Assembly (NCBI GenBank): GCA_964501445.1
Contig: CAZCSJ010000001.1
Coordinates: 7,248 to 71,247, forward strand
Direction: 5' to 3'
Length of the DNA: 64,000 nucleotides
Source: an uncultured Candidatus Saccharibacteria bacterium
GTDB lineage: Bacteria; Patescibacteriota; Minisyncoccia; Sungbacterales; HO2-52-23
Both the position numbers and the translations under genes were made by a program. This document shows, one piece after another, positions 808 to 57,619 of the stretch. The notes beneath the pieces were generated by a model that was not told the origin of the DNA, ran no database searches, and was given only the letters and a program-made list of their open reading frames with translations. The stretch's first letter is position 1, and each line of letters starts with the position of its first letter.

Positions 808-902
808 AATTCATAATTCCTGATTTATATTTCTTCCTGACAACATCCTTACAAACTCCAGTTTGTAGGGATGTTTTTACTGCCCGCGGTACTCCTTATA
901 AT

Positions 903-1643
903 TCACATCGTAAATTGCTCAAATCCTTTCTCCTCTACTTGCTTTACGATCTCCGCGCCGCCGCAGGCGACAATTTTCCCTTGCATCATCACATGTACGA
1001 CATCGGGTTTTAGATATTCGGCGAGGCGGCCGTAATGCGTGATGATGAGGAGCGCGCGGTGCGATGTCATATATTCTTTCAGTGCGGCGCAGACGGCTTT
1101 AAGCCCGTCTACATCAAGGCCGGAATCAAATTCATCAAGCACCGCGAGGTCGGGTTTCAACACCTGCAGTTGGAAAATCTCGCTTCGCTTTTTTTCACCT
1201 CCGGAAAACCCCTCGTTCACGTTTCGCGCAAAAAATGCCTCGGGAAGTTTTAATGAAGCGGCCGCGGGCGCGAATTCAGTCGCAAAATCAGTATCGGCTT
1301 TAAACGGCGCGCCGCGCGCGGCGCGCACACTTCGCAAAAACATCGCCATTGGCACTCCCCCGACTTCCGCCGGGTACTGAAAACCGAGATATAAACCGCG
1401 CCGCGCGCGCTCGTCGGGCGCAACTTTTGTAATTTCCTCGCCCTTGAAACAAATCGCGCCCTCACGCACGGAAACCGCAGGATGCCCCATCAAGACATTG
1501 CCAAACGTACTTTTGCCCGAGCCATTGGGCCCCATCAAAAAATGAATCTCGCCCGGGCGAACTTCCACATCAACGCCCTGGAGAATTTCTTTCTCCTGAA
1601 TTGATGCGTGAAGGTTTTTGACTAATAAGAGAGATGCCATCAC
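903..1643 (-). CDS. sufC: Fe-S cluster assembly ATPase SufC
   Basis: 246 aa. Walker A GPNGSGKST, ABC signature FSGGEKKR, Walker B LAVLDEFDSGLD. Adjacent to sufB. Confidence 0.95.
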   Translation of the reverse strand: MMASLLLVKNLHASIQEKEILQGVDVEVRPGEIHFLMGPNGSGKSTFGNVLMGHPAVSVREGAICFKGEEITKVAPDERARRGLYLGFQYPAEVGGVPMAMFLRSVRAARGAPFKADTDFATEFAPAAASLKLPEAFFARNVNEGFSGGEKKRSEIFQLQVLKPDLAVLDEFDSGLDVDGLKAVCAALKEYMTSHRALLIITHYGRLAEYLKPDVVHVMMQGKIVACGGAEIVKQVEEKGFEQFTM

Positions 1644-1673
1644 AAGCCCACCATACCATCGCAGAGAGTAGCG

Positions 1674-2324
1674 TCAATCATCGCGATGGCGCCGCTGGCC
1701 TTTCCGGTATTCGCGCCAAAAATGAATGACGCTCGGAAGCGAGGAAATGACGACAATACCCGCGACAATCGGCCAGAGATAGCGGTCAATACCCGGAATC
1801 GAGCTCCCGAGGTAGTAGCCCGCCGCAGGAATCCCAATCGCCCAGATGACTGCGCCAAGGATGTTATACCAAAGAAACGTCGGATACGGCATTTCGGCAA
1901 CCCCTGCCAAAATCGGCGCAAAGGTCCGCACCACAGGAATGAAACGCGCGAGGACTATTGCTTTCGCGCCATGCCGCAGATAAAACGCGCGCGCCGTATC
2001 CACATGGTCTTTGTGGAAGAAAAACGAATCGTCGCGCACGAAAATTTTGGGGCCAACCCTGCGGCCGAAGGCGTACCCCACAGAGACGCCCAGAATCGCA
2101 CCGAGGAAACAGACGGGAATCAGCCATCGGATATCAAATGCGCCTTGTGACGCGAGAAAACCCGCGGTAAAAAGGAGCGAATCACCCGGCAGAAAAAACC
2201 CAAAAAACACGCCGGATTCCAAAAAGATAATAAGGCCAATGCCGAAAAGCCCGACGAACTTCGCGAATTCCACTAAACTAATGCCGACAAGCGCTTCCAT
2301 CCGCTGAGTATATATCAGAAGCAA
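1674..2324 (-). CDS. DedA/VTT-family membrane protein
   Basis: 216 aa, multi-TM. FLPGDSLLFTAG and LARFIPVVRTFAP motifs are typical of the DedA (SNARE-associated) family. Confidence 0.85.
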   Translation of the reverse strand: MLLIYTQRMEALVGISLVEFAKFVGLFGIGLIIFLESGVFFGFFLPGDSLLFTAGFLASQGAFDIRWLIPVCFLGAILGVSVGYAFGRRVGPKIFVRDDSFFFHKDHVDTARAFYLRHGAKAIVLARFIPVVRTFAPILAGVAEMPYPTFLWYNILGAVIWAIGIPAAGYYLGSSIPGIDRYLWPIVAGIVVISSLPSVIHFWREYRKGQRRHRDD

Positions 2325-2388
2325 AGAAAGAAAAACTGCCCATCGCGGACAATGCGAAGTCCTGTAGGAGTATCAACGATATTCTTAG

Positions 2389-4941
2389 TTAGAACCCTTG
2401 AAGCAGTTGTATGAGTTTCTCTCGCATCGTCTCTAAGATTTGAGAAATAACCGCGAGGTTTTTGGCGCGGGTATCAATGGAGGAAGTGGTGGTGGAGGTA
2501 ATAGGGGCTTGCAAGGGAAAAATCAATTCATCGTCTTTCGAGGATGAATTATCCCCCGGAGTTTTTTGGCAAGTAACTCGGATATGTAAATTATTGCGGG
2601 ATTCATAGTATGGATCAGTACTACGGGCGTATAACTGTATGCTACCTGATGGGGGAATGAAGTTTACTATTCCTACTGGTGACCATATACCGCCGCCTAC
2701 CTTCGGAATAGGATATCCGCTTTCTAAGCAGGTACCTGCTCCGCTAGAAGTCCATGAAACAGTGAGTACCGAATTATAAGGAACTGACGACAGTTGGTCT
2801 TGTCCGTTTACTTTTACGTCCACGCTCATCGGAGTAGCCGCAGGTGTGGTTGCCGAAACCGGACTTGACTGCGCCGATACGTTGCCTGCGGCATCATACG
2901 CGGCAACGGTGTAGGTATATGTCGTGGCGGCGGTAAGTCCGTTAAGTCCAAGATCAGTGAAGCTCGTATATGGACTATTGGTTAGAAAAGCTCCGTTTCG
3001 GTATACTTTGTATCCAGTAACCCCACCCACATCATCCCTAGAAGCTGACCATGAAAGATTGATTTGGGTTGAAGAAATGACATTCGCGTTAAGGTTACCG
3101 GGGATTGAAGGAGCAGAGGTGTCTGCAAATGTGGTGATAGAAGCCGTATTTGATTGCGCTGATATATTTCCCGCCACATCATACGCGGCAACGGTATAGG
3201 TATACGTCGTGGAAGGAGCAAGTCCGAGATCGGTGTAACCGATAGAAGAGACAGTCATTACCAAAGTTCCATTTCGATATATTTTGTAACCGGCTACGCC
3301 AACAACATCAGTAGAGGCACTCCACAACAAATCAACTCTGGTGGTTGGAACGAAGGATGTATTAATTTGGTAGGAAAAAGCGAGGGCAGTAGCAGTAAAA
3401 TTGGCTGGTGTTGAGGGGGCGATGGTATCGGTAGTAGCGGTAGAAGTAGTAGGCGGGTTGAGCGTGATTTTGATTGTATCATGCACACCCGGCCAATTTG
3501 GAGGCGTGGAGCAGTAAGCCCCAATATCAATTACTAATTGGTTGGGGAAATTGGCGTGCCGAGCGTAGAGTTGTGTACTGCCGGAGAGCGGTATACCGCT
3601 ATTCGAACTGTCGCCTATTGGATATGGCCATTGGCTATTACCGTTCGCGCCCGGGACGATAGAGCCTTCTCTCGCACAGTTCGTGGCTCCGGATGAGGTC
3701 CAAGTTACGTTGAGAATGGAGTTATAGGGAACGTTTGAAAGCGTATCCTGACCATTGACTTTTACATCTACTGATATCGGGGCGGATGCGGTGGTGGTTG
3801 TCGCGGTGGTGGCAGTTGTTGCAAGCGTTGTTGCCGAAACCGGAGATGACGATGCTGAGAAATTTCCCGCAGCATCATACGCGGCAATGGTGTAGGTATA
3901 TGTTATGAAAGCGAAGCGTCCGGTATCACTATAACTGGTAGAACTATTATTCGCTGCAAAAGTTCCGTTTCGATATATTTGGTAACCGGCTACGCCGACA
4001 TTATCGGTTGCAGCTGTCCATGAAAGGTTGATCTGCGAAGATGAAATTGCCGTAGCAGTAAGATTGATCGGTACAGAAGGAGAGATGACATCAGTTGTAG
4101 AAGTCGCTGTGGTTGATGTGGAAGTAGATGTCGACTGGGCCGGTACTGCTGGTGTCGCGGGGATTGCCGACGTAGCGGGTTGAGCAGGAGTGGCGGGAGT
4201 AGCCGGTATGGCAGGGGTTATTCCCGATGGAGTAGTAGTGGCCGTTGTGGTAGTAGTCGTTGTCGCAGTTTGTTGAACCGGTATCGCCAGAATAGTTGTT
4301 GTTCCGGTAAGGCCCATTGGTTGAGCGGGGATGGTACCAGATGGAGTAGAGGTAGGGATTGTCGCGACGGGAATTCTCAGTAATCCCGGCGGAACAACAC
4401 CCGATGCTCCTGCACCATACGCTAAGAGACCCTGTACCACTCCCCTGCCAAGCTCTTGGAACTTCGCAAGGGTTTTGGGCCCTACAATCCCTACTGATTC
4501 AATCCCATGTTTTTCCTGCCATTTTTTTACCGCTTTTTCCGTGAGAGGACCAAAAAAGCCGGTGATAAGACCGTTGGGATAGATTTCCTTATCTCTTGCG
4601 AGAAATGCCTGGAGTTTGCGCACATCGTCGCCGGATGCGCCGCGGGAAAGAGGGCGGGTAAGTTCTGGGGGGGTTGCTTCGGGTTCTACAGGGGGAACAT
4701 CGGGAAGGATTGCTGACGGAGTGGTTTTGCTCGTTGGAGTTGCTTTTTCCGGTTCTTGGCCGAGTTCTCCCTGTAATGTTGCTACCTGCTGTTGGAGCGC
4801 CTGGATTTGTTTCAAGAGGTCCTGAATTTGTTTTTGGAGGTCGGCAGTAGAAAGTTTTTGATCGGCGCTTTGGGCGAAAACAAAAAATGGGGTGGCAAGA
4901 AGTAGTAATAACGTAATAGATGCAATGGAAAAGTTTTTCAT
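2389..4941 (-). CDS. Secreted cell-surface protein: signal peptide, coiled coil, peptidoglycan-binding domain, Thr/Pro linkers, 3 FN3-like domains and 2 copies of a Cys-containing Ig-like module
   Basis: 850 aa. N-terminal hydrophobic signal. PG_binding_1-like DDVRKLQAFLA...GFFGPLTEKAVKKWQ. FN3-like INLSW(T/S)A..D.VGV.GY.IYRNG repeated. The module VDVKVNGQD.LS.VPYNS.L.V.WTSSGA..C...GS.QLYAR occurs twice. Confidence 0.8.
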   Translation of the reverse strand: MKNFSIASITLLLLLATPFFVFAQSADQKLSTADLQKQIQDLLKQIQALQQQVATLQGELGQEPEKATPTSKTTPSAILPDVPPVEPEATPPELTRPLSRGASGDDVRKLQAFLARDKEIYPNGLITGFFGPLTEKAVKKWQEKHGIESVGIVGPKTLAKFQELGRGVVQGLLAYGAGASGVVPPGLLRIPVATIPTSTPSGTIPAQPMGLTGTTTILAIPVQQTATTTTTTTATTTPSGITPAIPATPATPAQPATSAIPATPAVPAQSTSTSTSTTATSTTDVISPSVPINLTATAISSSQINLSWTAATDNVGVAGYQIYRNGTFAANNSSTSYSDTGRFAFITYTYTIAAYDAAGNFSASSSPVSATTLATTATTATTTTASAPISVDVKVNGQDTLSNVPYNSILNVTWTSSGATNCAREGSIVPGANGNSQWPYPIGDSSNSGIPLSGSTQLYARHANFPNQLVIDIGAYCSTPPNWPGVHDTIKITLNPPTTSTATTDTIAPSTPANFTATALAFSYQINTSFVPTTRVDLLWSASTDVVGVAGYKIYRNGTLVMTVSSIGYTDLGLAPSTTYTYTVAAYDVAGNISAQSNTASITTFADTSAPSIPGNLNANVISSTQINLSWSASRDDVGGVTGYKVYRNGAFLTNSPYTSFTDLGLNGLTAATTYTYTVAAYDAAGNVSAQSSPVSATTPAATPMSVDVKVNGQDQLSSVPYNSVLTVSWTSSGAGTCLESGYPIPKVGGGIWSPVGIVNFIPPSGSIQLYARSTDPYYESRNNLHIRVTCQKTPGDNSSSKDDELIFPLQAPITSTTTSSIDTRAKNLAVISQILETMREKLIQLLQGF

Positions 4942-5128
4942 AAGAGAGGTCTAGACGTGTATCTTTTCAAAAGTATACCATGCCAAGCGGCAACATAAAA
5001 AGCATGTTGTGCACAAGGCGCATGCCATTCTGTAGCTTTAGCGAAAGATGGCTGCCCGGGCGGGAACTCCTCGATAAACTACCACACGGAATGTTATAGA
5101 ACTTCGGGGTAACATTCGGAGTTAGGTA

Positions 5129-5824
5129 TTATTTCTGTAACACAACATGAATCCAAAATAATTTGTCTTTTCTAAAATACTCTTTCTTTTTTAGAATCAT
5201 ACCGAGGGTCTCAAACTGCTCAATATATTTCTTACTACACCAATCTTCATTGCGCCACGGACGGACATTATGTGTAATCAAAATTCTTCCATCAGATTTC
5301 AATACATTCACAAATTTCTTAAGAATCTGAAAAAACTCGTCTGGTATATATGTATCTCCTAAATAATAAAGCACTTCTCCTAAAACTATTAGATTAAATT
5401 TTTCTTGAAACTCCATATCGCGTATATTTCCTGCCAAAAATTGTATATTTTTACTGTTTCCTAGTCGTTCTTTTGCGCGTACAATAGCTTCTTCTGAAAT
5501 ATCAACCGCAACTACCTCGTTACATAGTATAGAGATATGTTCGGCAAAATACCCCATACCCGTTCCTACATCAAGACATCTTTCATATTTTTTATCTGAA
5601 ATAAGTTGTATGGAAGAATACACCTGTTCGGTATTTTTATTTCTTCCCCACGGATCAATATCTTTCTTGTATACATCCTCCATATCCCATTTTTTCTTTA
5701 GATCAAAAAGAAAAACTACTGGGTTCTTCAAAAATTTTGTAAAGAAATCAATCATCGTGATATACCACATGGCCGCAGGTGCTATTCTTATAGGCATTTT
5801 ACCGCGAGCGCAGTTTTCATACAT
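5129..5824 (-). CDS. Class I SAM-dependent methyltransferase (NodS-like)
   Basis: 231 aa. DPWGR motif followed by the SAM-binding LDVGTGMGYF and VVAVDISEEAI. The gene is visibly AT-rich relative to its neighbours. The start codon is uncertain. Confidence 0.8.
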   Translation of the reverse strand: MYENCARGKMPIRIAPAAMWYITMIDFFTKFLKNPVVFLFDLKKKWDMEDVYKKDIDPWGRNKNTEQVYSSIQLISDKKYERCLDVGTGMGYFAEHISILCNEVVAVDISEEAIVRAKERLGNSKNIQFLAGNIRDMEFQEKFNLIVLGEVLYYLGDTYIPDEFFQILKKFVNVLKSDGRILITHNVRPWRNEDWCSKKYIEQFETLGMILKKKEYFRKDKLFWIHVVLQK

Positions 5825-5863
5825 TTTCTCTTGGGAACTCCATTCGTAGGACTCCCAGTAATG

Positions 5864-5936
5864 CTGCCGGGCCAGGGATCGAACCTGGAGTCTTTTGGTC
5901 CAGAGCCAAACGTGTTACCAATTACACCACCCGGCA
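5864..5936 (-). tRNA. tRNA-Gln (anticodon CTG)
   Basis: Manual cloverleaf, 73 nt: acceptor TGCCGGG/CCCGGCA (U1-A72, G73 as in bacterial tRNA-Gln), D arm GTGT/ACAC, anticodon loop CTCTGGA, T arm CCAGG-TTCGATC-CCTGG. No encoded CCA. Confidence 0.9.
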
Positions 5937-5946
5937 ATACGAAAAA

Positions 5947-5980
5947 ATGAAAGCGTTCCGATAACACGGAACGCTTTCAT
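5947..5980 (-). terminator. Intrinsic terminator downstream of ftsX
   Basis: Perfect 14-bp stem ATGAAAGCGTTCCG/CGGAACGCTTTCAT with a 6-nt loop, followed on the minus strand by TTTTTT. Confidence 0.75.
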
Positions 5981-6012
5981 TGTAGGCGAAACGGGTGAAT
6001 TTTTCAATCTCG

Positions 6013-6918
6013 TCAGATGTGCAGATACCGACGAATCGCGATGGCGCTTGAAATGACGCCAAGCCCCACTCCTGCAACGAGCATCACCAAGAAAAACTCC
6101 CAGAAATTCGTGAGGAAATAATTCTGGAGATTGAAACTTGGAACCAACACGCTGATTTTTGGAGAAAGGGTCCATGCGATCGGAAAGAAAAGAAGTGTCG
6201 TTATCACCGCCGCAACCGCGCCGTAGAGCACCCCGGTTACGAGAAAGGGCCCTCGGATAAACCACTGAGTCGCGCCCACAAGCCGCATGATGCCGATTTC
6301 TTCCCGCATGGTGTAAATCGCAAGACGCACGGTGTTAAACGCCACAAGGACCGCAGTGAAGGCAAGGAGTACTATGAGCCCCGCACCCAGACGCCGCGTG
6401 GTTCCCAGAATCGCGCCGAGGCGGTCAATCACCATCTGATTTTCAAAGTAATTCACCTTGTCCACAACTGGATAGTTTTTATCAAGCAAAAACTCGCTGA
6501 TGGACGCATACTCAGCCGCGTCTTTTGCTTTGATATTTACACTCGCCACAAGAGGGTTTTCGCCCAGTTCCTCCAGCGCATCAAGGATGAGGGCGTTACC
6601 GCTGTGCTTCTGACGGAAAATGACCAACGCCTCGTCCCGCGAGATATACGAAACCTCGGCAACCGCCGGAAGCGACTCAAGGTCGTGCTTCACCGAAAGA
6701 ATCCCCTCCTCCGGCGCATCCTCTTTGAAATACACCGTCACGTCAATTTTTTCCTCAAGTGCCGCAATCACGGTTGATGTGAGTGCAGAGAGAAATACGA
6801 GATTCCCGAGCACAAAGAGTGCCAGCACCATAATCAAAACCGTTGCGGTGGAGAGCCAGCCGTTGCGGCGGAAACTGAGATATCCTGCATAAATAATTCT
6901 CCGAAGATTTACGAGCAT
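6013..6918 (-). CDS. ftsX: Cell-division ABC transporter permease FtsX
   Basis: 301 aa. N-terminal TM, periplasmic domain and 3 C-terminal TMs (FtsX topology). Downstream of ftsE. Confidence 0.9.
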   Translation of the reverse strand: MLVNLRRIIYAGYLSFRRNGWLSTATVLIMVLALFVLGNLVFLSALTSTVIAALEEKIDVTVYFKEDAPEEGILSVKHDLESLPAVAEVSYISRDEALVIFRQKHSGNALILDALEELGENPLVASVNIKAKDAAEYASISEFLLDKNYPVVDKVNYFENQMVIDRLGAILGTTRRLGAGLIVLLAFTAVLVAFNTVRLAIYTMREEIGIMRLVGATQWFIRGPFLVTGVLYGAVAAVITTLLFFPIAWTLSPKISVLVPSFNLQNYFLTNFWEFFLVMLVAGVGLGVISSAIAIRRYLHI

Positions 6919-6948
6919 ATATACATTATAACATATCCACTACAATCC

Positions 6949-7088
6949 TGAATCTGCCTGATGTGATTTTGAAACCATGGGAGGAGGAATTTGCTTGGTT
7001 CCGCTTTAGCGGAAAATTCCGACGACCATGAGCGCAGCGCACCGCTGGAGTGCGCAAGCGTGTTGAAAAATCACATCAGGCAGATTCA
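6949..7088. repeat. 140-bp element with perfect 22-bp terminal inverted repeats between ftsE and ftsX
   Basis: TGAATCTGCCTGATGTGATTTT at 6949-6970 is the exact reverse complement of 7067-7088. Internal hairpins include GCGCAC-CGCTGGA-GTGCGC. Confidence 0.9.
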
Positions 7089-7089
7089 C

Positions 7090-7770
<681 letters not shown>

Positions 7771-7772
7771 AT

Positions 7773-7876
7773 CGCGATGCCAATATACGAATGCATACTA
7801 ATTATACTAATATAATATATGGTGAGCGTAGTCGAACCATTCGTATCATTGGTATAATTCGTATATTCGCATCGTA
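7773..7876 (-). repeat. Family-A intergenic TIR repeat, copy 1 (prfB stop to ftsE start)
   Basis: CGCGATGC(C/T)AATATACGAATGCATAC...ATTCGTATCATTGGTATAATTCGTATATTCGCATCG. Shared with 30238-30325, 42453-42552, 45255-45383 and 54034-54122. Confidence 0.9.
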
Positions 7877-8972
7877 TTAGGAGCGGAGCTCCGCTTCTAT
7901 AAACTCATCCAATTCTCCGTCCAGCACCTTATCAATCTGGGAAGTCTCCGCCCCTGTCCGGTGGTCTTTTACCATCTGATACGGGTGCATCACATACGAA
8001 CGGATCTGACTCCCCCACTCAATTGCCACTTTTTCTTGCCGGATGCCTTGGCGCTCTTTTTCCTGCTGCTGGAGCCGGAACTGATAGAGACGCGAGCGCA
8101 AAAGACCCATTGCGACTTCCCTGTTTCTCTCCTGCGAACGCTCCACCTGCGATGCGACCTGGAGTCCCGTCGGCAGATGGGTGATGCGAACCGCGGTCTC
8201 GCGCTTATTCACATTCTGTCCTCCCGGACCGGATGAGCGAAAAAAATCAATTTTCAAATCCTCGGCTGTAATCTCCACTTCTTCGGGCGCGACAAATTCG
8301 GGCATCACGTCCACCAGCGCAAACGAGGTGTGGCGGAGCGACTGCGACGAAAATGGGGAAATGCGCACGAGCCGATGCACGCCAGATTCTTTTTTCAAAT
8401 ATCCGTAGGCATACTCCCCCGCTATTGCAATCGTCGCGTTCTTCACTCCCCATCCGGAAGGACCGTTCTGTTCGCCCCAATGTTCATGAATTGTTTTGAT
8501 ACTCCATCCGCGCTGTTCCGCAAATCTCCGAAACATCCGAATGAGAATTGCCGCCCAATCCTCCGCGTCTTTCCCGCCCGCACCCGCATACATCGAGAGC
8601 ACGGCGTTTCCTTTATCATACTTCCCCGAGAGAAAGAGTTCCAACTCAATCCGATGAAGCTCTTTTTCAAGGGCAGCGACGCGCGATGCAGTCTCGGAAA
8701 CCAGTGTGTCATCCTCTTGGGCAATCCCGAGAAGCGTACGGAGATCAACGGTATCAGCATACATGCGATCCCATCGCTCTATCTCGCGTTTCAGCGCGGC
8801 GGCTTCTTTGCTTATTTCCCCCGCTCGCTCTGTATCGCTCCAGAACTCCGGACGCGCCATTTCAACCTCCATCCGCGCGACATCGTGCCGCTTTCGCTCA
8901 ATATCAAAGACGGTCCGCCAACTGGCGGATGTGAGTTTCAAGCGAATCAATTCGTTCCCGCAATTCGTTCAT
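7877..8972 (-). CDS. prfB: Peptide chain release factor 2, programmed +1 frameshift: join(8972..8907, 8905..7877)
   Basis: The main frame carries SPF and GGQ (SGPGGQNVNK) motifs. Upstream, frame 0 runs from ATG at 8972 as MNELRERIDSLETHIRQLADRL, then CTT TGA T (TGA at 8906-8904). A +1 shift continues DIERKRHD.. in the listed ORF frame. Confidence 0.9.
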
Positions 8973-10275: not shown

Positions 10276-12387
10276 TCATTTAGGCCATGATTCTACCAGT
10301 AGCATCCGTTTATCTTTTGTGTGGAGGTGGCACCAGATCTCTTCGGTGACAAACGGCATGAATGGGTGGAGGAGTTTAAGGGAAGTTGCGAGGGTGTGGA
10401 GGAGGATGTGCTGTGTAGATTCCTTCAGTTTGGGGTCTGCGAGCTGTGTTTTGCTCGCTTCAAGATATTTGTCGCAGAATTGGTGCCAGAAGAAATCGTA
10501 GAGTGTGTGGAGTGCGGGGCCGAATTCGTATTTTTCTATTTTCTCACTCACGGTCTTTTGCATTTTTTTGAGTTGAGTGAGAATTCTCTTATCGGCAAGA
10601 GTTTTTGGACGAGGTTTCAGGTTGTCCCTCGACTTCGCTCGGGATATATTTCCTGAGCCATTCGGCACTGAGCTCATGGCCGAAGTGCTTGTCGAAGGAT
10701 AGGTGGTGGCGTGCAAATTACTTAACACAAACCGCGATGCGTTCCAGATTTTGTTTGCAAACTTCTTCCCTGCAACCACATGCTCCTCAGACCAATGGAT
10801 ATCCTGATTGCCCATTGCCTGCCAGATGAGACCGAAGCGAGTTGCATCCGCGCCGTAGCGCGAGATTAAATCCATCGGGTCAATGCCGGTGCCGAGCGAC
10901 TTTGACATCCGCTTGCCGTCTTTGGTGAGAATAGTCGCATGGATAATTACATCTTTGAATGGGTCCTTGCCCGTAAATTCTTTTCCAGAAAACACCATCC
11001 GTGTAACCCAAAGATTGATAATATCCCGCGCGGTTGATAATACCTGTGTGGGATAAAATGTTTTTAGGTCCTTACCTTTTGACAGTGTGGCAAACGGCCA
11101 GAGCGCGGAGGAAAACCATGTGTCCAACACATCATCTACTCCGTCAATCGGGATCTTGTGTCCCCACCAGATTTGGCGCGAGATGCACCAGTCCTTTATA
11201 TTTTTCAGCCAGTCAAAATATACTTTTTCCCAACGTTTGGGGTGAAAGCGTATTTTGCCGGATTTTACCGATTGCGTGGCCATCTTGGCGAGTTCCCCCA
11301 TTTTCAAAAACCACTGCAAACTCGGCATCGGCTCAATGACTGTTGCGCACCGATAACAGACCGCGACGTTGTGCGTATAGGGCTTTTCTGAAACAATGAG
11401 TCCTTTTTTGCGAAGGTCTTCTGTAATTTGTTTCCGCGCTTCGGCAACCGGTAGCCCCGCGTATTTTTCCGCGAGCTCGGTCATCTTGCCGTCCGGGCCG
11501 ATTACTTTTTTTACTTCAAGGCCGTGTTTTTCCGCGAGTTCAAAGTCGTGGATGTCGTGCGCCGGTGTTACTTTCATCGCACCTGTTCCGAACTCCATAT
11601 CCACGCTCGGGTCTCCGACCACTTTCATTTTCCGCGGCCCGAGAACGGTTTCCACATCTAGTTCTTTTCCAATATATTTTTTGTAGCGCGCGTCTTTAGG
11701 GTTTACCGCAATTGCGGTATCCCCTACTTTTGTCTCGGGGCGCACCGTGCCGATTGTAAGCGGCCCATATTTAATTGAGTACCATGTTACTTTTTCTTCT
11801 TTGTACTCAAGTTCCAAATCCGACAAGCTCGTGCGGCACCGCGTGCACCAATTCACCACGCGCTCCGCGCGATATATCCACCCCTTTTTGTAGTAATGCA
11901 AAAATGCCTCCTCAACCGCCTTTTGATAATCGGGGTCCATGGTGAAGCGCGTGCGAGACCAATCCATTGAGGAGCCGAGCTTCTTGAATTGCCCCAAAAT
12001 GATGTGGCCGTATTTCTCTTTCCACTCCCAGACCTTTTCAAGAAATTTCTCGCGGCCGAGCTCGTGGCGCGAGATACCCTGTTTTCGTAAATCTTTCTCC
12101 ACCACATTTTGCGTGGCAATTCCCGCATGGTCCGTGCCCGGAAGCCAGAGGGTTTTAAACCCCTCCATTCGTTTTTTGCGAATCAAAATATCCTGAATTA
12201 CGGCATTCAAGGCGTGGCCCATGTGGAGCGAGCCCGTAACATTGGGCGGAGGAACGGTGATGGTGTAGGACTTCGCGCGTTTGCCGGGCAATTTATCCGG
12301 ATTAAAAAAACCGGATCGTTCCCACTTTCGATAGACCGTTTCCTCAACGGATTTAGGGTCGTATTGGGGTGTTAGCTCTTTTCTCAT
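10276..12387 (-). CDS. valS: Valine--tRNA ligase (short form without the C-terminal coiled coil, carrying an in-frame repeat insertion)
   Basis: 703 aa. HIGH-type SLHMGHAL, editing-domain motifs TVRPETKVGDTAIAV and KVTPAHD, and KMSKS. Confidence 0.95.
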   Translation of the reverse strand: MRKELTPQYDPKSVEETVYRKWERSGFFNPDKLPGKRAKSYTITVPPPNVTGSLHMGHALNAVIQDILIRKKRMEGFKTLWLPGTDHAGIATQNVVEKDLRKQGISRHELGREKFLEKVWEWKEKYGHIILGQFKKLGSSMDWSRTRFTMDPDYQKAVEEAFLHYYKKGWIYRAERVVNWCTRCRTSLSDLELEYKEEKVTWYSIKYGPLTIGTVRPETKVGDTAIAVNPKDARYKKYIGKELDVETVLGPRKMKVVGDPSVDMEFGTGAMKVTPAHDIHDFELAEKHGLEVKKVIGPDGKMTELAEKYAGLPVAEARKQITEDLRKKGLIVSEKPYTHNVAVCYRCATVIEPMPSLQWFLKMGELAKMATQSVKSGKIRFHPKRWEKVYFDWLKNIKDWCISRQIWWGHKIPIDGVDDVLDTWFSSALWPFATLSKGKDLKTFYPTQVLSTARDIINLWVTRMVFSGKEFTGKDPFKDVIIHATILTKDGKRMSKSLGTGIDPMDLISRYGADATRFGLIWQAMGNQDIHWSEEHVVAGKKFANKIWNASRFVLSNLHATTYPSTSTSAMSSVPNGSGNISRAKSRDNLKPRPKTLADKRILTQLKKMQKTVSEKIEKYEFGPALHTLYDFFWHQFCDKYLEASKTQLADPKLKESTQHILLHTLATSLKLLHPFMPFVTEEIWCHLHTKDKRMLLVESWPK

Positions 12388-12476: not shown

Positions 12477-13808
12477 TCATCTGCGGGAATTGATGGTGAG
12501 GTTTGGATGCGCTTCCAGTTTCTTCCAGGGCTTTCCGCCAGCTGGCGGATTGCCTGTGAAGTATGCCGCGAGTGCGATCATGAGGGCGTTGTCGCCGGTC
12601 AACGATGAATTAGGAATTAAGAAGTATGAATTATGGACTTCTTTTCTTAGTGCTTCCCGGAGTTTTTGTTGTAGCAGATGGTTTGCGGCAACTCCGCCGC
12701 CGAGGAGCACGGTTTTGGCTTTGTATTCTTTTACCGCTCTGACAGTTTTTTTCACGAGTACATCTACAACCGCGTCTTGAAATTCTTTTGCGATCGCAGG
12801 GCGCAAGCGGCGTATGTCTGCGGGCTTCATCTCACGGAGCATATAGAGTACTGCGGTTTTGAGCCCCGAAAAGGAAAAATCGTAATCGTGTGAATGGAGC
12901 ATGGGTCGCGGGAGTATCACTTTATAATTTTTGTATTCCCTCGACTCTGCTCGGGAAATATTTCCTGAGCTTGTCGAAGAACTATCTTTTATACCGCGCG
13001 CTATACGCGCGATCTCCGGTCCTCCAGGGTATGGCAGTCCCAAAAGCCGCGCGACTTTATCGAACGCCTCCCCTGCCGCATCGTCCCGCGTCTCGCCGAT
13101 TATTTTGAATTTTCCGTGTCCGCGCATAAGTACGAGTTCTGTGTGCCCGCCGGATACCAGAAGCGCGAGGGCGGGGAATTTGATAGGTTTTAGGGGGTAG
13201 GTTTTAGGGGGTAGGGACTTTGGTATGAGAGCGGAATATAAATGACCTGCCATGTGGTCGGTTGGAAGCAACGGCACGTTCCAAAGTGCAGAAAGCGCGC
13301 GGGCAAAATTCACCCCGACCCAAAGCGCGGGCGCAAGTCCGGGGCCGTGCGTGACCGCGATTGCGTCTATCTTTGGCGCAGGCAGCGGTGCGATATGTTT
13401 TTTGAAGCGAAACAGGAGTTCGGGTTCACGTTCGAGGATCAAATTAAGGTTGCCCCTCGACTTCGCTCGGGGAATAATAATTCCTGAGCCTGTCGAAGGA
13501 TTACTTTTCAGTTTATGCAGTTTTCCTTCCTTCAGTGCTTTGAGTAAAAGTGGCACGAGATTTTTCTGGTGTTCCCGTTTTGCGAGATTGGGCACCACCC
13601 CACCGAATTTTTGGTGTATTTTCACCTGCGAGGAGATGAGGTTTGCTAATACGCGGATTTTCGCAGATGATAACGCAGATTTACGCAGATTCGTATCCGC
13701 GCGGATCCGCGAGGGTTGTTTAATCGGTGTTAATCCGCGGCCATTGCTGAATTCCGCAATGGCAATTGCGGTTTCATCACAGCTGGTCTCTATCGCGAGA
13801 ATGCGCAT
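12477..13808 (-). CDS. tsaD: tRNA N6-adenosine threonylcarbamoyltransferase TsaD (about 100 aa longer than usual because of repeat-derived inserts)
   Basis: 443 aa. MRILAIETSCDET.., GGVVPNLAKREH, SGGHTEL and LGGGVAANHLL are Kae1/TsaD hallmarks. Confidence 0.9.
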   Translation of the reverse strand: MRILAIETSCDETAIAIAEFSNGRGLTPIKQPSRIRADTNLRKSALSSAKIRVLANLISSQVKIHQKFGGVVPNLAKREHQKNLVPLLLKALKEGKLHKLKSNPSTGSGIIIPRAKSRGNLNLILEREPELLFRFKKHIAPLPAPKIDAIAVTHGPGLAPALWVGVNFARALSALWNVPLLPTDHMAGHLYSALIPKSLPPKTYPLKPIKFPALALLVSGGHTELVLMRGHGKFKIIGETRDDAAGEAFDKVARLLGLPYPGGPEIARIARGIKDSSSTSSGNISRAESREYKNYKVILPRPMLHSHDYDFSFSGLKTAVLYMLREMKPADIRRLRPAIAKEFQDAVVDVLVKKTVRAVKEYKAKTVLLGGGVAANHLLQQKLREALRKEVHNSYFLIPNSSLTGDNALMIALAAYFTGNPPAGGKPWKKLEAHPNLTINSRR

Positions 13809-14336: not shown

Positions 14337-14389
14337 CCCGAGCTTGTCGAAGGCGTACATTTAATGAAGCCCTTCGACTTCGCTCAGGG
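14337..14389. repeat. Family-C palindromic element, non-coding copy (thyA-folA spacer)
   Basis: CCCGAGCTTGTCGAAGG-(loop)-CCTTCGACTTCGCTCAGGG. The same arms occur inside valS, tsaD and recG. Confidence 0.85.
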
Positions 14390-26729: not shown

Positions 26730-26768
26730 CCTAAAAATCCCCTTCGACATGCTCAGGGGATTTTTAGG
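26730..26768. terminator. Hairpin terminator downstream of the 26797..27987 gene
   Basis: 13-bp stem CCTAAAAATCCCC/GGGGATTTTTAGG. The loop carries a family-C half-site, CCTTCGACATGCTCAGG. Confidence 0.65.
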
Positions 26769-30231: not shown

Positions 30232-30237
30232 ACTTGA

Positions 30238-30325
30238 CGCGATGCTAATATACGAATGCATACTAATCATACTAATACTTCCTATCCATTCGTATCATTA
30301 GTATTATTCGTATATTCGCATCGTA
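30238..30325 (-). repeat. Family-A intergenic TIR repeat, copy 2 (gatC stop to gatA start)
   Basis: GCGATGCTAATATACGAATGCATAC...CATTCGTATCATTAGTATTATTCGTATATTCGCATCG. Confidence 0.9.
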
Positions 30326-30619
30326 TTATTCAAACACCGCTTTTACTTTCACATATCCCTTTTCGCGCTCGGGCGCTGCGGAAAGCAGACGCTCCGGATT
30401 TCCTTCAAGCGATGTATCGATCGCATCGTCCTCTCGCATGACGTTTTTTAACTGCGTGCCGCCGGTCATGGGAAGAACATTCTCCGTATCCAATTCCCCC
30501 AACTGCTCCACAAACGACAAAATCGCCGAGAGTTCTTTCTCAAACTTCTCTTTTTCCGTGTCGGTCAGGGCGATTCGCGCGAGATGCGCGATATGTGCGA
30601 CGTCGTTTTTTGAAATCAT
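30326..30619 (-). CDS. gatC: Glutamyl/aspartyl-tRNA amidotransferase subunit C
   Basis: 97 aa. VAHIAHLARI.L...E......L..IL.FVE.L is GatC-typical. The ATGA overlaps the stop of the ligase gene. Confidence 0.9.
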   Translation of the reverse strand: MISKNDVAHIAHLARIALTDTEKEKFEKELSAILSFVEQLGELDTENVLPMTGGTQLKNVMREDDAIDTSLEGNPERLLSAAPEREKGYVKVKAVFE

Positions 30620-33118: not shown

Positions 33119-33877
33119 TTAAAATTCCCTTAGCCGCGGGACAATGCTCGTCTGAAGCGACAGGGACACAGGAGACGAGAGCCGCGGATCTGCGGACTGG
33201 ACTTGAAGGACGATCGTCGCGATCGGCTGGCCATCGGAAGAACCCCGCGTCGCGCCATGGAGAACGAAACGGAGATTTTTCACTCTCACCTCATCGCTCG
33301 TGAGCGGCTGGGTGTATGCCGTCTCCCCGCAGTTTTGGTGATTTACACTGTCACTCATCCGCATGATGGTGAGATTTTCCGGCCGCGAATCCCAGTAGTA
33401 GGTAATCTGCGTTCCCTCGGAGTTGGTAAACGTGAGTTCGTGGATCGGATCAAACCCGGAACCCACGCAGTTTAACCCAAAGGAGGTATTTTGGTACCCA
33501 AAACCCGTGCGGAGCTCTTTTGTAATCAACTCCAAACTGAAACGGACATTATCTTGGATCGCCTGGGTTTCGGCCGCGCGGACCTGCGCATTCATGATAT
33601 CAATCGTGACTCCGATCGCGCTCACCACGATCACCAAAAAAATCCCCATGGAGGTAACCATCTCAAGCAAGGTAAACCCGTTTCGCCCCCCACCCCACGA
33701 TGAGATTCCTATGCGTTTTTGCGAAATTGTGGAGGCGTGGCGCACAAATAACCGAAGCGAGGAGGATGGGAAACAGGGGCGCGAGTCCCGCGGGAAGCGG
33801 GACGAGCGAACACTGAGGGGTTCCCGCCGACGAGCGAGGATTATTTGTCCACGCCGAAACGTTGAAGCAAAACGCAT
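33119..33877 (-). CDS. Type IV pilin-like pseudopilin with a long identical N-terminal module
   Basis: G|FTLLEMVTSMGIFLVIVV prepilin motif. The ATG at 33877 lies 7 nt after the upstream stop. The first about 70 codons are identical to the next gene. Confidence 0.75.
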   Translation of the reverse strand: MRFASTFRRGQIILARRREPLSVRSSRFPRDSRPCFPSSSLRLFVRHASTISQKRIGISSWGGGRNGFTLLEMVTSMGIFLVIVVSAIGVTIDIMNAQVRAAETQAIQDNVRFSLELITKELRTGFGYQNTSFGLNCVGSGFDPIHELTFTNSEGTQITYYWDSRPENLTIMRMSDSVNHQNCGETAYTQPLTSDEVRVKNLRFVLHGATRGSSDGQPIATIVLQVQSADPRLSSPVSLSLQTSIVPRLREF

Positions 33878-33879
33878 AG
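33663..33879 (-). repeat. Duplicated pseudopilin 5-prime module, copy 1
   Basis: 33663-33863 is identical base for base to 34456-34656 (201 bp, compared by eye). Similarity continues through the ATG. Confidence 0.95.
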
Positions 33880-33884
33880 GAATC

Positions 33885-34670
33885 TCATCTCCAATTATAT
33901 AATCGCTCCCGCAACTCGACCTCTTTTCGCACTCCGCGCTCATCCCACCATACTCGTGAGATAACATCCATTTGGTCGTTCTTGTTGATGTTATTCGCTT
34001 GATCTTCATTATCGGGCGGCGATCTCACGGTGACGGTGCGGCGAAAGATCGTGGGCTCCGCACCGCCGTATCCCACAAGACCGGTTGCTGGATCCCGCGA
34101 GAGATTTTGATTCCCCACGCCGGCCTGGGCAGGAGAAAACAACGGCATGGGAATTACGGGGTTTCCCCCGCACGTGATTCCTTCCGGTCCGATCTGGGTG
34201 GCATCCACCTCCCATGTGCCGTCCATGGATCCGCTCCCCGAGGGATGACGCTCCCAATCCCATTTTGGCTTGCCGTTCAATTGATCGCACAGCACATTAT
34301 TTTCACGCACGAGCCGCACGATCTCAATTCCCTCTTGCGCGAGGTGCAGGGCGGCAAGACGGTTTTTGGCGGAAGGGAAAGAAGAAATACTGCGCGTGAC
34401 CACCGCAACCGGCCCCACGACTGCCGCGAGAATCAGAGAGAGGGCGATAATGGTTTCAAGCAAGGTAAACCCGTTTCGCCCCCCACCCCACGATGAGATT
34501 CCTATGCGTTTTTGCGAAATTGTGGAGGCGTGGCGCACAAATAACCGAAGCGAGGAGGATGGGAAACAGGGGCGCGAGTCCCGCGGGAAGCGGGACGAGC
34601 GAACACTGAGGGGTTCCCGCCGACGAGCGAGGATTATTTGTCCACGCCGAAACGTTTGAGTAAAACGCAT
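33885..34670 (-). CDS. Type IV pilin-like pseudopilin with a long identical N-terminal module
   Basis: G|FTLLETIIALSLILAAVV prepilin motif. The ATG at 34670 lies 7 nt after the upstream stop. Confidence 0.75.
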   Translation of the reverse strand: MRFTQTFRRGQIILARRREPLSVRSSRFPRDSRPCFPSSSLRLFVRHASTISQKRIGISSWGGGRNGFTLLETIIALSLILAAVVGPVAVVTRSISSFPSAKNRLAALHLAQEGIEIVRLVRENNVLCDQLNGKPKWDWERHPSGSGSMDGTWEVDATQIGPEGITCGGNPVIPMPLFSPAQAGVGNQNLSRDPATGLVGYGGAEPTIFRRTVTVRSPPDNEDQANNINKNDQMDVISRVWWDERGVRKEVELRERLYNWR

Positions 34671-34672
34671 AG
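34456..34672 (-). repeat. Duplicated pseudopilin 5-prime module, copy 2
   Basis: See copy 1. Confidence 0.95.
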
Positions 34673-38668: not shown

Positions 38669-38788
38669 TGGTACGAGGGACTAGGGGTTAGGTTTTAGGT
38701 TGTAGGGGGTAAGGGGTCCTGCTAATGATTACCGGTAACTAATTATCAATTTATTAATCCCTAGCCCCTAATCCCTAAAACCTAGAAC
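38669..38788. repeat. G-rich TTAGGG-like repeats in inverted arrangement around an AT-rich core (pilT-pilC spacer)
   Basis: Left arm CTAGGGGTTAGGTTTTAGGTTGTAGGGGGTAAGGGG. Right arm CCCTAGCCCCTAATCCCTAAAACCTAGAACCTAG. Confidence 0.8.
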
Positions 38789-42437: not shown

Positions 42438-42452
42438 ATCGTGCTTCGCACA

Positions 42453-42552
42453 TCGCGATGCTAATATACTAATGCATACCAATTATACGAATACCGTATC
42501 ATTTGTATCATTGGCATAATTCGTATATTCGCATCGTATTATATTGGCATCG
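42453..42552 (-). repeat. Family-A intergenic TIR repeat, copy 3 (upstream of pilB)
   Basis: CGCGATGCTAATATACTAATGCATACC...ATTTGTATCATTGGCATAATTCGTATATTCGCATCG. Confidence 0.9.
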
Positions 42553-43438: not shown

Positions 43439-43447
43439 TGTGAGGTT

Positions 43448-44023
43448 TTAGGGGTTAGGGGTTAGGGGGGAAGAAAGAGAGGCGCGGAAAAATGAGGGGG
43501 TAAAAATGATCGTGGTCTGGAATCTAAGAATGTTATTTTGGTCAAGCGCCAAATTGCCAAATTCCACCCGCTCTATGCGGGGATCTCCCTCAAGGAGCGC
43601 GATTTGCCGCGCGAGTGTCGCATAGCCCGCTGCCTCGCCTGACATATCAAGGCGCCGGGTATCCGCGCGGAAATTAAAATTGAGGAAACGGACCCGAGGG
43701 TTGGTCGTGCTCTCAAGGAACGAAAAAATTGGGGTGAGGAAAAGGCGCTGCGAGAGAATAGTCCGCATGTCGCGGAGACGGCTATCCAGGAGAAACACCT
43801 GATTTATCGCTTCCGGCCGGATTTCTGCCTTGCTCTCAATCTCTGCGGTGAGTTCCTCAAGAGCTGAAGCCTGATACCGGTTGAGCACAAAAAGTCCGCC
43901 GTAGGCAGCGCCTTCCAGCACCAAAAGCGCAACGCCCGCATAGATAAGCAGGGGTACGGTTGAACGCACCGTGACGTCAATTTTGGAACCCATTGTTGCT
44001 TTTGATGAAAGGAGGTCGGCCAT
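43448..44023 (-). CDS. pilN: Type IV pilus biogenesis protein PilN-like
   Basis: I place the start at the ATG at 44023 (MADLLSS..). Single TM plus coiled coil. The C-terminal PLTPNP is encoded by the CCCCTAA repeat. Confidence 0.7.
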   Translation of the reverse strand: MADLLSSKATMGSKIDVTVRSTVPLLIYAGVALLVLEGAAYGGLFVLNRYQASALEELTAEIESKAEIRPEAINQVFLLDSRLRDMRTILSQRLFLTPIFSFLESTTNPRVRFLNFNFRADTRRLDMSGEAAGYATLARQIALLEGDPRIERVEFGNLALDQNNILRFQTTIIFTPSFFRASLSSPLTPNP

Positions 44024-44138: not shown

Positions 44139-45251
44139 TTACCTTGTGGTGATCTCATGGAGTGCTAATCCCACGGCGGTGGAAAAGTTCGGGCCGATGT
44201 CGCGCAGCATCGGCTGGAGAAATGCGGGTGCTACCACGCGCGCAAAGGGATTCCCGCGCGTCACCTCTATGCCAAATCGGGTGCTCGTGTAATCAATAAG
44301 GCCTTTCATATGCGATCCTCCGCCGGTCAAATTTATTTTCTGGATCTTTCGGTCGGTACGGCGATTGTAGAGCGCTACAATCCGTTCAATTTCCGCGAGG
44401 AGCGAATCGGTAAGGGGCGTTAAGACCGACGTAATCTCTTTTTGCTCCACCCGTTCCTCAATGCCGATGTCCTGCTTTATCGCCTCCGCGCGCTCCTGAT
44501 TGATACCCATGCCCTGCGCTAACGCCCGCGTGAGCTCCTCTGAACCGCGACTGATGTTATGCGACATCCGGAGTTTGCCGCGGTCAACGACCGCAACGGT
44601 GGTCGTATAGTGCCCCATATTGAGAATCAGGGTCGGGGTGGTATCCATGCCCATAAGCGACCGGACAATGCTGAACGTTTCCACTTCCAGCGCCACAAGT
44701 GTTATGTCGAGCATCTGGCTTATCCGTTTGAACTTTTCAATGACTTCTTTTGGCACTGCCACAAGCAGAACCGTAACCCCCTGATCGGTCTCCTCAATCA
44801 CCTCCCAGTCAAGGGTCACTTCTGCGATCGGTATGGGAACGTACTTTCGCGCCTCAAAAGGGATCGCCTGCGAAATTTCCTTTATCGCGATCTTCGGGAA
44901 CGGGATCGGGGTAACAAAACTTGAGGTTGCGGGTACGCCGATAACCGCGTCTTTCGCAGTCACATTGGACTCGCGGAGGATATCCCGGAGCAGATCCGCA
45001 ATATCAGCATCGGTGTAGCGGAGAAACCCCCCTCCGCCAGCTGGCAGACCCCCTTCACTTGTTTTGAGATACTTTCCCGAAAGCAATTCGCCGTACGTTT
45101 CAAGGATTGCCCGCTCTTTCTCGTAGTGTAATTGTACCACTTTCGCAGAATGGATTCCAACATCAATACCCACCGTGCGGGACGGCTTGCCTTTGAGAAA
45201 GTCAAGCGAGAATCCGGGAAGACGAAGTTTTTTAAGAAAAGGAATGTCCAC
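44139..45251 (-). CDS. pilM: Type IV pilus assembly protein PilM (actin-like ATPase)
   Basis: 370 aa. VGIDVGIHSAKVVQL and LTGGGSHMKGL are actin-fold phosphate motifs. GTG start. Confidence 0.9.
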   Translation of the reverse strand: MDIPFLKKLRLPGFSLDFLKGKPSRTVGIDVGIHSAKVVQLHYEKERAILETYGELLSGKYLKTSEGGLPAGGGGFLRYTDADIADLLRDILRESNVTAKDAVIGVPATSSFVTPIPFPKIAIKEISQAIPFEARKYVPIPIAEVTLDWEVIEETDQGVTVLLVAVPKEVIEKFKRISQMLDITLVALEVETFSIVRSLMGMDTTPTLILNMGHYTTTVAVVDRGKLRMSHNISRGSEELTRALAQGMGINQERAEAIKQDIGIEERVEQKEITSVLTPLTDSLLAEIERIVALYNRRTDRKIQKINLTGGGSHMKGLIDYTSTRFGIEVTRGNPFARVVAPAFLQPMLRDIGPNFSTAVGLALHEITTR

Positions 45252-54031: not shown

Positions 54032-54033
54032 GT

Positions 54034-54122: not shown

Positions 54123-54123
54123 T

Positions 54124-57572: not shown

Positions 57573-57619
57573 GAGGTAAGAATAAAGAAGCAAGACCCAA
57601 GAAGCAAGGGCAATACGGA

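Follow-up and report, generated by a model that had tools for sequence, protein, structure and literature searches.

An in-frame palindromic double-hairpin element in valS of a Candidatus Saccharibacteria bacterium, with copies in many phyla

The valS locus and its insert

The 64,000-nucleotide (nt) stretch of contig CAZCSJ010000001.1 analysed here, from an uncultured Candidatus Saccharibacteria bacterium, is referred to as the window. On its minus strand it carries valS, the gene for valyl-tRNA synthetase (ValRS), which contains a palindromic repeat inserted without disruption of the reading frame. The conserved parts of this repeat recur in other genes and spacers of the same genome and at loci of genomes labelled as more than ten phyla. 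The features of the valS locus are as follows.

10276-12387, minus strand: valS, the host gene, encoding a 703-residue ValRS (PDB 1GAX, E = 2.9e-184; Pfam families)
10626-10698, minus strand: composite (nested) double-hairpin copy of the repeat, in frame in valS (nhmmer E = 1.3e-9)
10658-10687, minus strand: nested 30-nt hairpin, an inverted repeat with the sense-strand sequence CACTTCGGCCATGAGCTCAGTGCCGAATGG

The plus strand of the segment 10626-10698 reads CCCTCGACTTCGCTCGGG-ATATATTT-CCTGAG-[CCATTCGGCACTGAGCTCATGGCCGAAGTG]-CTTGTCGAAGG, where the bracket encloses the 30-nt nested palindrome. The valS reading frame continues unbroken through the insert (...YPSTSTSAMSSVPNGSGNISRAKSRDNLKP..., ...HATTYPSTSTSAMSSVPNGSGNISRAKSRDNLKPRPK...), which is translated as PSTSTSAMSSVPNGSGNISRAKSR(D), and ...TYPSTSTSAMSSVPNGSGNISR... 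is an example of a peptide stretch across the insert junctions. Sequence and translation thus confirm both the in-frame palindromic repeat and the second palindrome nested within it, which had been proposed in an initial annotation of this DNA. The nested hairpin splits the first conserved block of the repeat between ..ACAAG and CTCAGG, and occurs only once within the window. The valS copy is predicted to fold as RNA into a three-way structure with an energy of -32.2 kcal/mol (z = -4.1).

The insert is specific to the lineage. ValRS was compared with the best 120 of 8000 homologues, all of them Parcubacteria-like, and the insert peptide is present in none of the 119 homologues other than the protein itself. 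The nearest relative, encoded at locus L001, is 90% identical in amino acid sequence over the aligned part and 83% identical in nucleotide sequence, and the alignment has a 75-nt gap exactly at the insert. The L001 protein (899-3634 of that locus) is 911 residues long and has a match to the histidine phosphatase domain His_Phos_1 in its middle part.

Residues 558-591 of ValRS correspond to only 7 residues in the ValRS of T. thermophilus. In the AlphaFold model, calculated with 55 homologues to a mean predicted local distance difference test (pLDDT) score of 86.9, residues 565-589 are the sole segment with pLDDT below 50 and form a coil between helices 535-556 and 597-618. Alignment and model therefore place the insert in a loop between the catalytic body and the anticodon-binding helices, as the initial annotation had it. 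The 703-residue protein lacks the C-terminal coiled coil found in T. thermophilus ValRS.

Copies of the element in the same genome

Related sequences are present in and next to the window as listed below. The two hairpins of the element, described in a later section, are designated H1 and H2.

12477-13808, minus strand: tsaD, a host gene of 443 codons (Pfam TsaD, E = 4.8e-76)
12938-12980, minus strand: basic 43-nt copy in frame in tsaD, SSTSSGNISRAESRE (nhmmer E = 5.9e-14)
13454-13499, minus strand: 46-nt copy in frame in tsaD, PSTGSGIIIPRAKSRG (profile match)
61872-63998, plus strand: recG, a host gene of 708 codons (Pfam RecG_wedge, DEAD, Helicase_C and RecG_dom3_C)
63062-63104, plus strand: basic 43-nt copy in recG, in frame and in sense orientation, read as LRQAQDISPEQSRG (nhmmer E = 3.7e-14)
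14337-14388, minus strand: intergenic dimer in the spacer that separates the DHFR gene from the thymidylate synthase gene; modules swapped (H2-type, then H1-type)
26730-26768, plus strand: solitary H1-type hairpin, intergenic, AAAAATCCCC-TTCGACATGCTCA-GGGGATTTTT
59840-59900, strand unassigned: two degenerate first-block sequences in inverted arrangement, TTCGATAAACTCA ... TGAGTTTGTCGAA, downstream of tRNA-Arg
7820-7839, plus strand: H2-like hairpin TGGT-GAGCGTAGTCGA-ACCA, nested in another, AT-rich intergenic repeat
45328-45347: second H2-like hairpin nested in the AT-rich repeat
13436-13508 of locus L121 (approximately 65307-65379 in window numbering), minus strand: 73-nt composite copy in a glycosyltransferase gene, with 3 mismatches to the valS copy

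The two tsaD copies, the recG and spacer copies and the partial sites all lie where the initial annotation had located them, although some of its descriptions require correction. The recG copy, described as being in the opposite orientation, is so only in that it lies on the plus strand; relative to its gene it has the same sense orientation as the other copies, in a different reading frame. The spacer copy is present, with its two halves in swapped order, and folds with an energy of -26.2 kcal/mol (z = -5.0). The supposed half-site at 26741 is a complete single hairpin: the partial-pattern match at 26741-26757 belongs to a hairpin in which the conserved 13-nt block is enclosed by a perfect 10-base-pair (bp) stem, with a T run after it. 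This hairpin at 26730-26768 has terminator-like T runs on both strands and folds with -20.5 kcal/mol (z = -6.6). A second partial match is located at 59884-59900.

The two half-site patterns have 7 and 5 matches in the window, compared with 0.14 and 0.10 expected, and none of 100 shuffled sequences equalled the observed counts. A profile search with nhmmer recovered the four intragenic copies of the window at E = 1e-9 to 4e-14. It also identified a sixth full copy about 1.3 kb past the end of the window, in the glycosyltransferase gene (Glyco_trans_2_3). The valS repeat hence has further copies in its genome, two in tsaD and one each in recG, the spacer and the glycosyltransferase gene. Of the two findings that the initial annotation would have taken as a refutation, the same peptide at this position in orthologues of unrelated phyla and a lack of further copies in the genome, neither was observed. 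Since the latter copy has the 73-nt composite form, that form has itself been copied, and the subfamily with a nested third hairpin has at least two members (valS and the glycosyltransferase gene). The 3' flank ACAACCT is common to both composites, and the tsaD copy at 13454 is followed by GCAACCT.

The inserts in the other host proteins also occupy positions that are short or missing in proteins of known structure. The tsaD copy at 12938 forms extra residues relative to the TsaD structure 3ZET, and the copy at 13454 is inside a 44-residue stretch that has no counterpart there. Residues 395-423 of RecG, located between helicase motifs II and III, correspond to 4 residues in T. maritima RecG (1GM5). 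Among 119 other TsaD homologues, a single one has the tsaD insert peptide, and in the loop occupied by the 12938 copy the insert of the relative L001 is a different one. Residues 558-591 of ValRS and residues 98-141 and 270-295 of TsaD are linkers that are hypervariable across Parcubacteria. The ValRS and TsaD linkers of other lineages hold different repeat-like peptides of low complexity, such as KSQIPNKSQIQNSK, CGQKRRGRRDASLRPP and IKYPVLSKRIQNTKYKILDT, which suggests that the colonisation of surface loops by repeats is a general feature of this group.

Distribution across phyla

One genome per GTDB species was scanned for the exact pattern TTCGACARGCTCRGG-N4-20-CYGAGCRRAGTCGARGG, which was found at at least 118 loci; fewer than 1e-4 matches are expected by chance, according to our estimate. 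Judged by record titles, these loci come from more than 10 phyla. Most belong to Acidobacteriota (Vicinamibacterales). The remaining listed loci are from Omnitrophota, Planctomycetota, Patescibacteria (including Saccharibacteria and Parcubacteria), Acidimicrobiia, Chloroflexota, Binatia, Verrucomicrobiota, Zixibacteria, Bacteroidota, Aquificota and one gammaproteobacterium. Several of the copies are in frame in genes with Pfam domains on both sides of the insert: those of UbiD, an acyl-CoA dehydrogenase, ValRS (at a different site), a MacB/FtsX permease and a CBS-containing CCA-adding/PolyA_pol enzyme. The initial annotation regarded the valS repeat as an independent case in a genome resembling those of the candidate phyla radiation (CPR). 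This view is not tenable, because identical conserved blocks are present at these loci in more than 10 phyla, some of them in frame. The variant with an AT-rich middle, typical of the source genome, has only two matches in a metagenome scan, both intergenic, and is therefore rare.

Dense local arrays of the element are present at L081, at approximately 4700-7230 (a metagenome-assembled genome of Flavobacteriales), and at L005 and L107 (Omnitrophota). In this set, tandem 13-nt tails (ACGAAGTCGAGGG x3) directly follow the second hairpin.

It is hardly credible that these similarities are due to chance or to artefacts of assembly or binning. Nearly all cross-phylum matches are from metagenome-assembled genomes, and some of the phylum labels are doubtful, such as those of 'Cyanobacteriota' and 'Bifidobacteriaceae' bins with 61-71% GC. 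However, the counts far exceed those in shuffled sequences, an independent assembly record of the source genome contains the identical sequence, and copies occur in both short-read and megabase long-read contigs. Reading frames are kept in real genes. The middles and stems of the copies are adapted to their lineages, AT-rich in low-GC and GC-rich in high-GC genomes, and the presence of AT-rich middles and stems peculiar to low-GC lineages indicates that the cross-phylum spread is real. For the window, explanations by chance or artefact are rejected; mis-binning could only lower the number of phyla.

Two adjacent hairpins with conserved loops

The canonical element, including its target triplet, is 48 nt long and has the structure NNN-CCC-[TTCGACARGCTCA]-GGG-N'N'N'-Y-CCC-[GAGCRRAGTCGA]-GGG-R-NNN. 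The bracketed blocks of 13 and 12 nt are the same across phyla and are complementary to each other. Pairing takes place between the middle of the element and the sequences outside of its conserved blocks, as in cGACCC|TTCGACAAGCTCA|GGGTCG and TCGtCCC|GAGCGAAGTCGA|GGGaCGA from copies of different phyla. Variants of the stems retain the pairing (TGACCC/GGGTCA and GAATCC/GGATTC). The copies of the source genome have an AT-rich middle and a basic core of 43 nt, from which we infer that a basic copy there inserts 45 nt.

Covariation was evaluated in a gap-free alignment of 45 distinct copies, with 500 shuffles and with controls in which the model was slid along the alignment. In the two-hairpin model 97-98% of the cells are paired, in contrast to 29-60% in the slid controls. 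Cells altered on both sides number 65-66, compared with 18 in shuffled alignments, and none of the 500 shuffles reached the observed value. The variable position in the second half covaries with its own two-hairpin partner (C..G or T..A), not with its partner in a single long hairpin. The covariation of the stems implies that the conserved 13-nt and 12-nt blocks are hairpin loops. The initial annotation had described an imperfect palindrome; the inverted repeat is real, but the description is incomplete, as covariation supports two adjacent hairpins, the loops of which are the conserved blocks.

Because the two loops are mutually complementary, the unit can also refold as one long hairpin. The energy model prefers this long hairpin for the window copies, with energies of -21 to -26 kcal/mol. 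No covariation in favor of a single long hairpin was detected across the 45 distinct copies, a result that is uninformative either way, since the columns of the long hairpin are fixed by the search pattern. Overall, the folds of the window copies are very stable (-20.5 to -32 kcal/mol, z = -3.5 to -6.6). Mismatches in the stems are more often G.T than A.C (63 vs 33, p = 0.003). This excess, together with the preference for the sense orientation described below, suggests that one particular strand folds, either as RNA or as single-stranded DNA.

Empty sites and the target triplet

The acyl-CoA dehydrogenase gene provides a comparison of empty and filled alleles. Among 122 orthologues, 111 are empty (..VDGEHFTAF..) and 11 carry DPSTSSGSARAESRA. 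The DNA of the empty allele is GACGGCGAACAC (GAC GGC GAA CAC), and that of the filled allele is GACGGCGA|CCCTTCGAC...GAGGGCCGA|ACAC (GAC GGC GA|C CCT TCG ... AGG GCC GA|A CAC). The two differ by exactly 45 nt. The insert is flanked by CGA on both sides, and its centre, TCG, is complementary to the flanking triplet.

The same arrangement is common among canonical copies. Of 65 such copies, 54 have the same triplet on the left and on the right, and the pairs of flank and centre are CGA/TCG in 31, CGG/CCG in 8 and TGA/TCA in 8 copies. No wider target consensus beyond the triplet was found in this set. The element can itself be nested, as observed at L097 and in the valS and glycosyltransferase composites. 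The tsaD site gives no readable target duplication, and the relative L001 has a different insert there.

Reading frames, orientation and gene context

The coding copies of the source genome use all three sense frames. The valS copy and both tsaD copies read PSTSSG..SRAKSRG. The recG copy reads LRQAQDISPEQSRG in another frame, and the glycosyltransferase copy reads SFD..LRKYIPSNVEG in a third. A single frame common to all coding copies is ruled out by the recG and glycosyltransferase copies. The use of three frames indicates that DNA or RNA is conserved rather than a peptide. Five of the six frames of the basic element are free of stop codons.

Sense orientation is common to all five intragenic copies, those of valS, tsaD (two), recG and the glycosyltransferase gene. 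Near 57-59 kb the GC skew and the strand of the genes both switch, and we considered whether replication determines the orientation of the element. This is unlikely, since to the right of the skew switch the recG copy, on the plus strand, and the glycosyltransferase copy, on the minus strand, are both in sense; the orientation tracks the gene, not replication. Approximately 83% of the window is coding, and therefore the location of four of its five full copies within genes requires no special targeting.

The intragenic status of 78 copies from high-GC genomes was judged by a test of GC content at codon positions. Seventeen are intragenic and in frame (14 sense, 3 antisense), 33 adjoin a gene end, and 23 have no coding sequence on either side. 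When the window copies are pooled with these, the element is in sense in 19 of the 22 in-frame cases (p = 0.008 relative to the proportion of 0.6 expected from open frames). The STSSG frame is used by 11 of the 17 in-frame copies of high-GC genomes. This preference arises because the CGA target lies as NNC-GAN, a placement that also produces the recurrent 'DP' at the start of the insert.

The reading frames bear on the hypothesis that the insert is a selected protein module, a hydrophilic peptide (STSSG..SRAKSRG) gained repeatedly as a flexible linker or interaction motif. The peptide is indeed hydrophilic and located in a disordered loop, and the STSSG frame is the commonest one. We nevertheless find this explanation very improbable, as three frames are used within one genome, the frame preference in high-GC genomes follows from the position of the CGA target, and many copies are non-coding. 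Moreover, the conservation is at the nucleotide level, with covarying stems.

A second possibility is that the element is an RNA structure selected in mRNA, which would act as a ribosome pause, in protection from or processing by RNases, or as a site for an RNA-binding protein, its spread being a matter of recruitment. Such a role would agree with the compensatory covariation in both stems, the excess of G.U-compatible mismatches on the sense strand, the sense orientation of 19 of 22 in-gene copies, the high stability of the window folds and the resemblance of one solitary hairpin to an intrinsic terminator. However, the search of the window and 18 loci against Rfam 15 at gathering score identified only tRNAs and one c-di-GMP-I riboswitch, and the element matches no Rfam family. 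The hosts are functionally unrelated, and positions within the genes are arbitrary. The element is missing from valS of the closest relatives and from most orthologues of every tested host, and coding sequence is absent from both sides of 23 of the 78 high-GC copies. Nesting and tandem tails are typical of selfish repeats. On balance, an RNA function is an improbable explanation. Resemblances to a hammerhead-like ribozyme core and to the T-arm of tRNA were also considered, and were dropped after inspection of the sequences.

Comparison with known repeats and mobile elements

RPEs (Rickettsia palindromic elements) are multi-copy palindromic repeats located in frame in unrelated housekeeping genes, at tolerated sites and without a transposase (PMC10969869; PMC3733652). 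The present element resembles them as a repeated palindrome that keeps the frame of its host genes (valS, tsaD with two copies, recG and the glycosyltransferase gene) and occupies loop positions. It differs in its length, 43-73 nt compared with approximately 100-150 bp for RPE-1, in its use of all three sense frames, and in its range of more than 10 phyla rather than one genus; these distinctions are drawn from descriptions of RPEs, not from their consensus sequences. RPE-4 and RPE-6 are CGTC-tagged and have stems of 8-9 bp and loops of 4-5 nt (PMC3733652), whereas our element has no CGTC tag, and its loops are conserved and 12-13 nt long. The likeness to RPEs proposed in the initial annotation therefore stands for a multi-copy palindrome in frame in essential genes, but length and distribution place the element outside the RPE definition. 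The element works like an RPE, and is not a member of any RPE family.

Repetitive extragenic palindromic sequences (REPs) and the doublets formed by them (REPINs) are similar to the element in that small hairpins occur singly or as inverted doublets, here in both orders (H1-H2 and H2-H1), and in that a doublet can form a larger hairpin. Intragenic REPs have been documented in several species, including doublets that encode 20-30 residues (PMC3733652). The element might accordingly be a REP/REPIN doublet moved by a REP-associated tyrosine transposase (RAYT), or by a Y1 transposase of the IS200/IS605 type, encoded elsewhere in the genome. REPs have conserved stems, small loops and an unpaired GTAG or CGTC tag, however, and the element shows the reverse, conserved loops of 12-13 nt on variable, covarying stems. 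When positions beside the stems were inspected for such a tag, they were found to be variable (CGA, CGG, TGA) and paired with the middle of the element. An extragenic location does not characterize the element either, since 4 of the 5 full window copies and 17 of the 78 high-GC copies are intragenic. REPINs are described as vertically inherited and lineage-specific, whereas the element is common to many phyla. No RAYT was found in the 64-kb window with approximately 8 kb of flanks, nor in the 118 listed loci of 8 kb each, and a regular-expression screen for HUH/Y1 transposases gave no hit in these loci; the window likewise has no Y1 transposase-like open reading frame (ORF). We consider a REPIN origin unlikely.

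The complementarity between the flank and the centre of the element recalls insertion sequences of the IS200/IS605 family, which use pairing between guide and target sequences and also have hairpins at both ends. The geometry of the left end of the element differs from that of IS608.

The element has the formal features of a miniature inverted-repeat transposable element (MITE), with imperfect inverted ends of 17-18 nt and a direct repeat of 3 nt. Its terminal inverted repeats, short direct repeat, lack of a coding capacity of its own and occasional in-frame fusions to host ORFs are shared with the Correia/NEMIS, ERIC and Nezha families. At 45 nt it is, however, far below the typical size of MITEs, being just two inverted ends with a 4-nt centre, and complementarity of the centre to the flanking repeat is outside of the MITE model. 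We know of no parent insertion sequence for the element.

Double-hairpin elements of fungal mitochondria, reportedly described by Paquin, Laforest and Lang in 2000, and the GC clusters of these organelles are also short mobile two-hairpin units present in both spacers and coding genes. They are organellar and unrelated in sequence, and the likeness is architectural only.

Full-text searches for the sequence of the element, in both orientations and as DNA or RNA, retrieved no paper, and a search of the literature on CPR bacteria and palindromic elements yielded nothing relevant. The supplements of the REP catalogue paper contain neither the sequence of the element nor its peptides.

Proposed nature and spread of the element

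Taken together, the data indicate that the element is probably a non-autonomous, mobile double-hairpin DNA similar to RPEs, REPINs and MITEs, and that it resides as a tolerated passenger in surface loops. We hypothesize that it spreads as a folded single-stranded nucleic acid, the conserved loops of which would be recognised by an enzyme acting in trans. The exposed central triplet, or its stem, may select or match the 3-nt target. Intragenic copies would be tolerated passengers rather than functional modules. They may survive because the insertion adds whole codons, because five of six frames are free of stops, because the encoded peptides are hydrophilic and flexible, and because the copies are kept only in surface linkers.

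Several observations weigh against this interpretation. Pfam annotation of the window revealed no transposase, and all-against-all clustering of ORFs within 2.5 kb of the 118 listed copies revealed no recurrent neighbour; the only ORF clusters near the copies are longer repeats in which the element is included. Among first and second blocks paired at spacings of 60-3500 nt in the 118 listed loci there was no convincing autonomous element, and no such ends enclosed a transposase gene. The exact pattern has no match in 2.9 million viral contigs of IMG/VR, and a blastn search with the canonical 48-mer gave no match among PLSDB plasmids and GenBank phages. In a neighbour-joining tree, the 11 filled alleles of the acyl-CoA dehydrogenase gene are interspersed with empty ones. 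They nevertheless have a rare variant of the centre in common, which points to a single origin followed by recombination or repeated precise loss. At the window copies the target duplication is unreadable, as the flank of the valS copy is too diverged from L001. The stems formed between flank and middle of the window copies are short, 3-5 bp. The search pattern that yielded the loci fixes the loops, so that their conservation is in part a product of the search. Finally, covariation and sense bias fit selection on RNA structure equally well.

The kind of element described here is known. Its size of 15 codons, the conserved loops on covarying stems, the target-complementary centre and the cross-phylum range that includes CPR bacteria are new. 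It is a tentative possibility that the element represents a new kind of coding-compatible mini-transposon of 45 nt, present in many phyla, that chooses its 3-nt target by pairing of the central triplet. Its movement would depend either on a universal host enzyme or on an as yet unrecognised one that reads the loops, and its length of 15 codons and lack of stops would be adaptations to gene-dense genomes. Sub-families with the centres TCG, CCG and TCA are located beside CGA, CGG and TGA, respectively. If this is true, such a mini-transposon remodels the surface loops of essential proteins while it colonises gene-dense genomes.

Other repeats and features of the window

The source genome contains further repeat families. 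One is a perfect 16-nt palindrome, TCCGCCAGCTGGCGGA, with the following copies.

12534-12549: in frame in tsaD, read as 'NPPAGGK'
45033-45048, 8914-8929 and 56992-57007: in frame in genes, the hosts being pilM and two other ORFs
32426, 35396 and 45293: intergenic

Tandem GGTTTTAGGGG units are located at 13186-13210 in tsaD, where they encode 'PPKTYPLKP', a 9-residue insert relative to TsaD of the E. coli type, and in intergenic regions at 38698-38708 and 43444-43454. TsaD also has an N-terminal insert of 29 residues (residues 23-51, ..IRADTNLRKSALSSAKI..). In total, the protein has at least five repeat-like inserts and is 443 residues long, compared with approximately 340 residues.

Another intergenic repeat, palindromic and AT-rich, measures about 95-110 nt (CGCGATGCTAATATACGAATGC...ATTCGTATATTCGCATCG) and is present at 7770-7874, 30235-30328, 42451-42541, 45268-45382 and 54033-54126. 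Two of its copies contain a nested H2-like hairpin and one contains the 16-nt palindrome, which indicates that small hairpins nest inside other repeats. A 230-nt direct repeat with 96% identity (33650-33879 and 34443-34672) lies in two adjacent ORFs without Pfam matches, upstream of type IV pilus genes.

The sign of the GC skew is reversed at approximately 57000-59000, where the genes also switch from the minus to the plus strand; an S1-domain gene and tRNA-Arg are nearby, and no dnaA was seen. This region may be a replication origin.

Significance

Rickettsia offers the best-known cases of selfish hairpin DNA that enters essential genes and leaves them intact. The copies described here indicate that in-frame hairpin insertion also operates in CPR bacteria, and that an identical 45-nt unit inserts in this way in soil and groundwater lineages of many phyla. 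ValRS, TsaD, RecG, PilM and other proteins of the source genome carry inserts from several repeat families. These inserts point to a general route by which proteins of gene-dense, reduced genomes acquire variable loops, and call for caution in annotation, as such segments are not lineage-specific functional domains. The combination of conserved loops on variable stems, exact insertion of 15 codons and a flank complementary to the centre constitutes a testable problem of transposition. The element may also mark the exchange of DNA between CPR cells and other bacteria.

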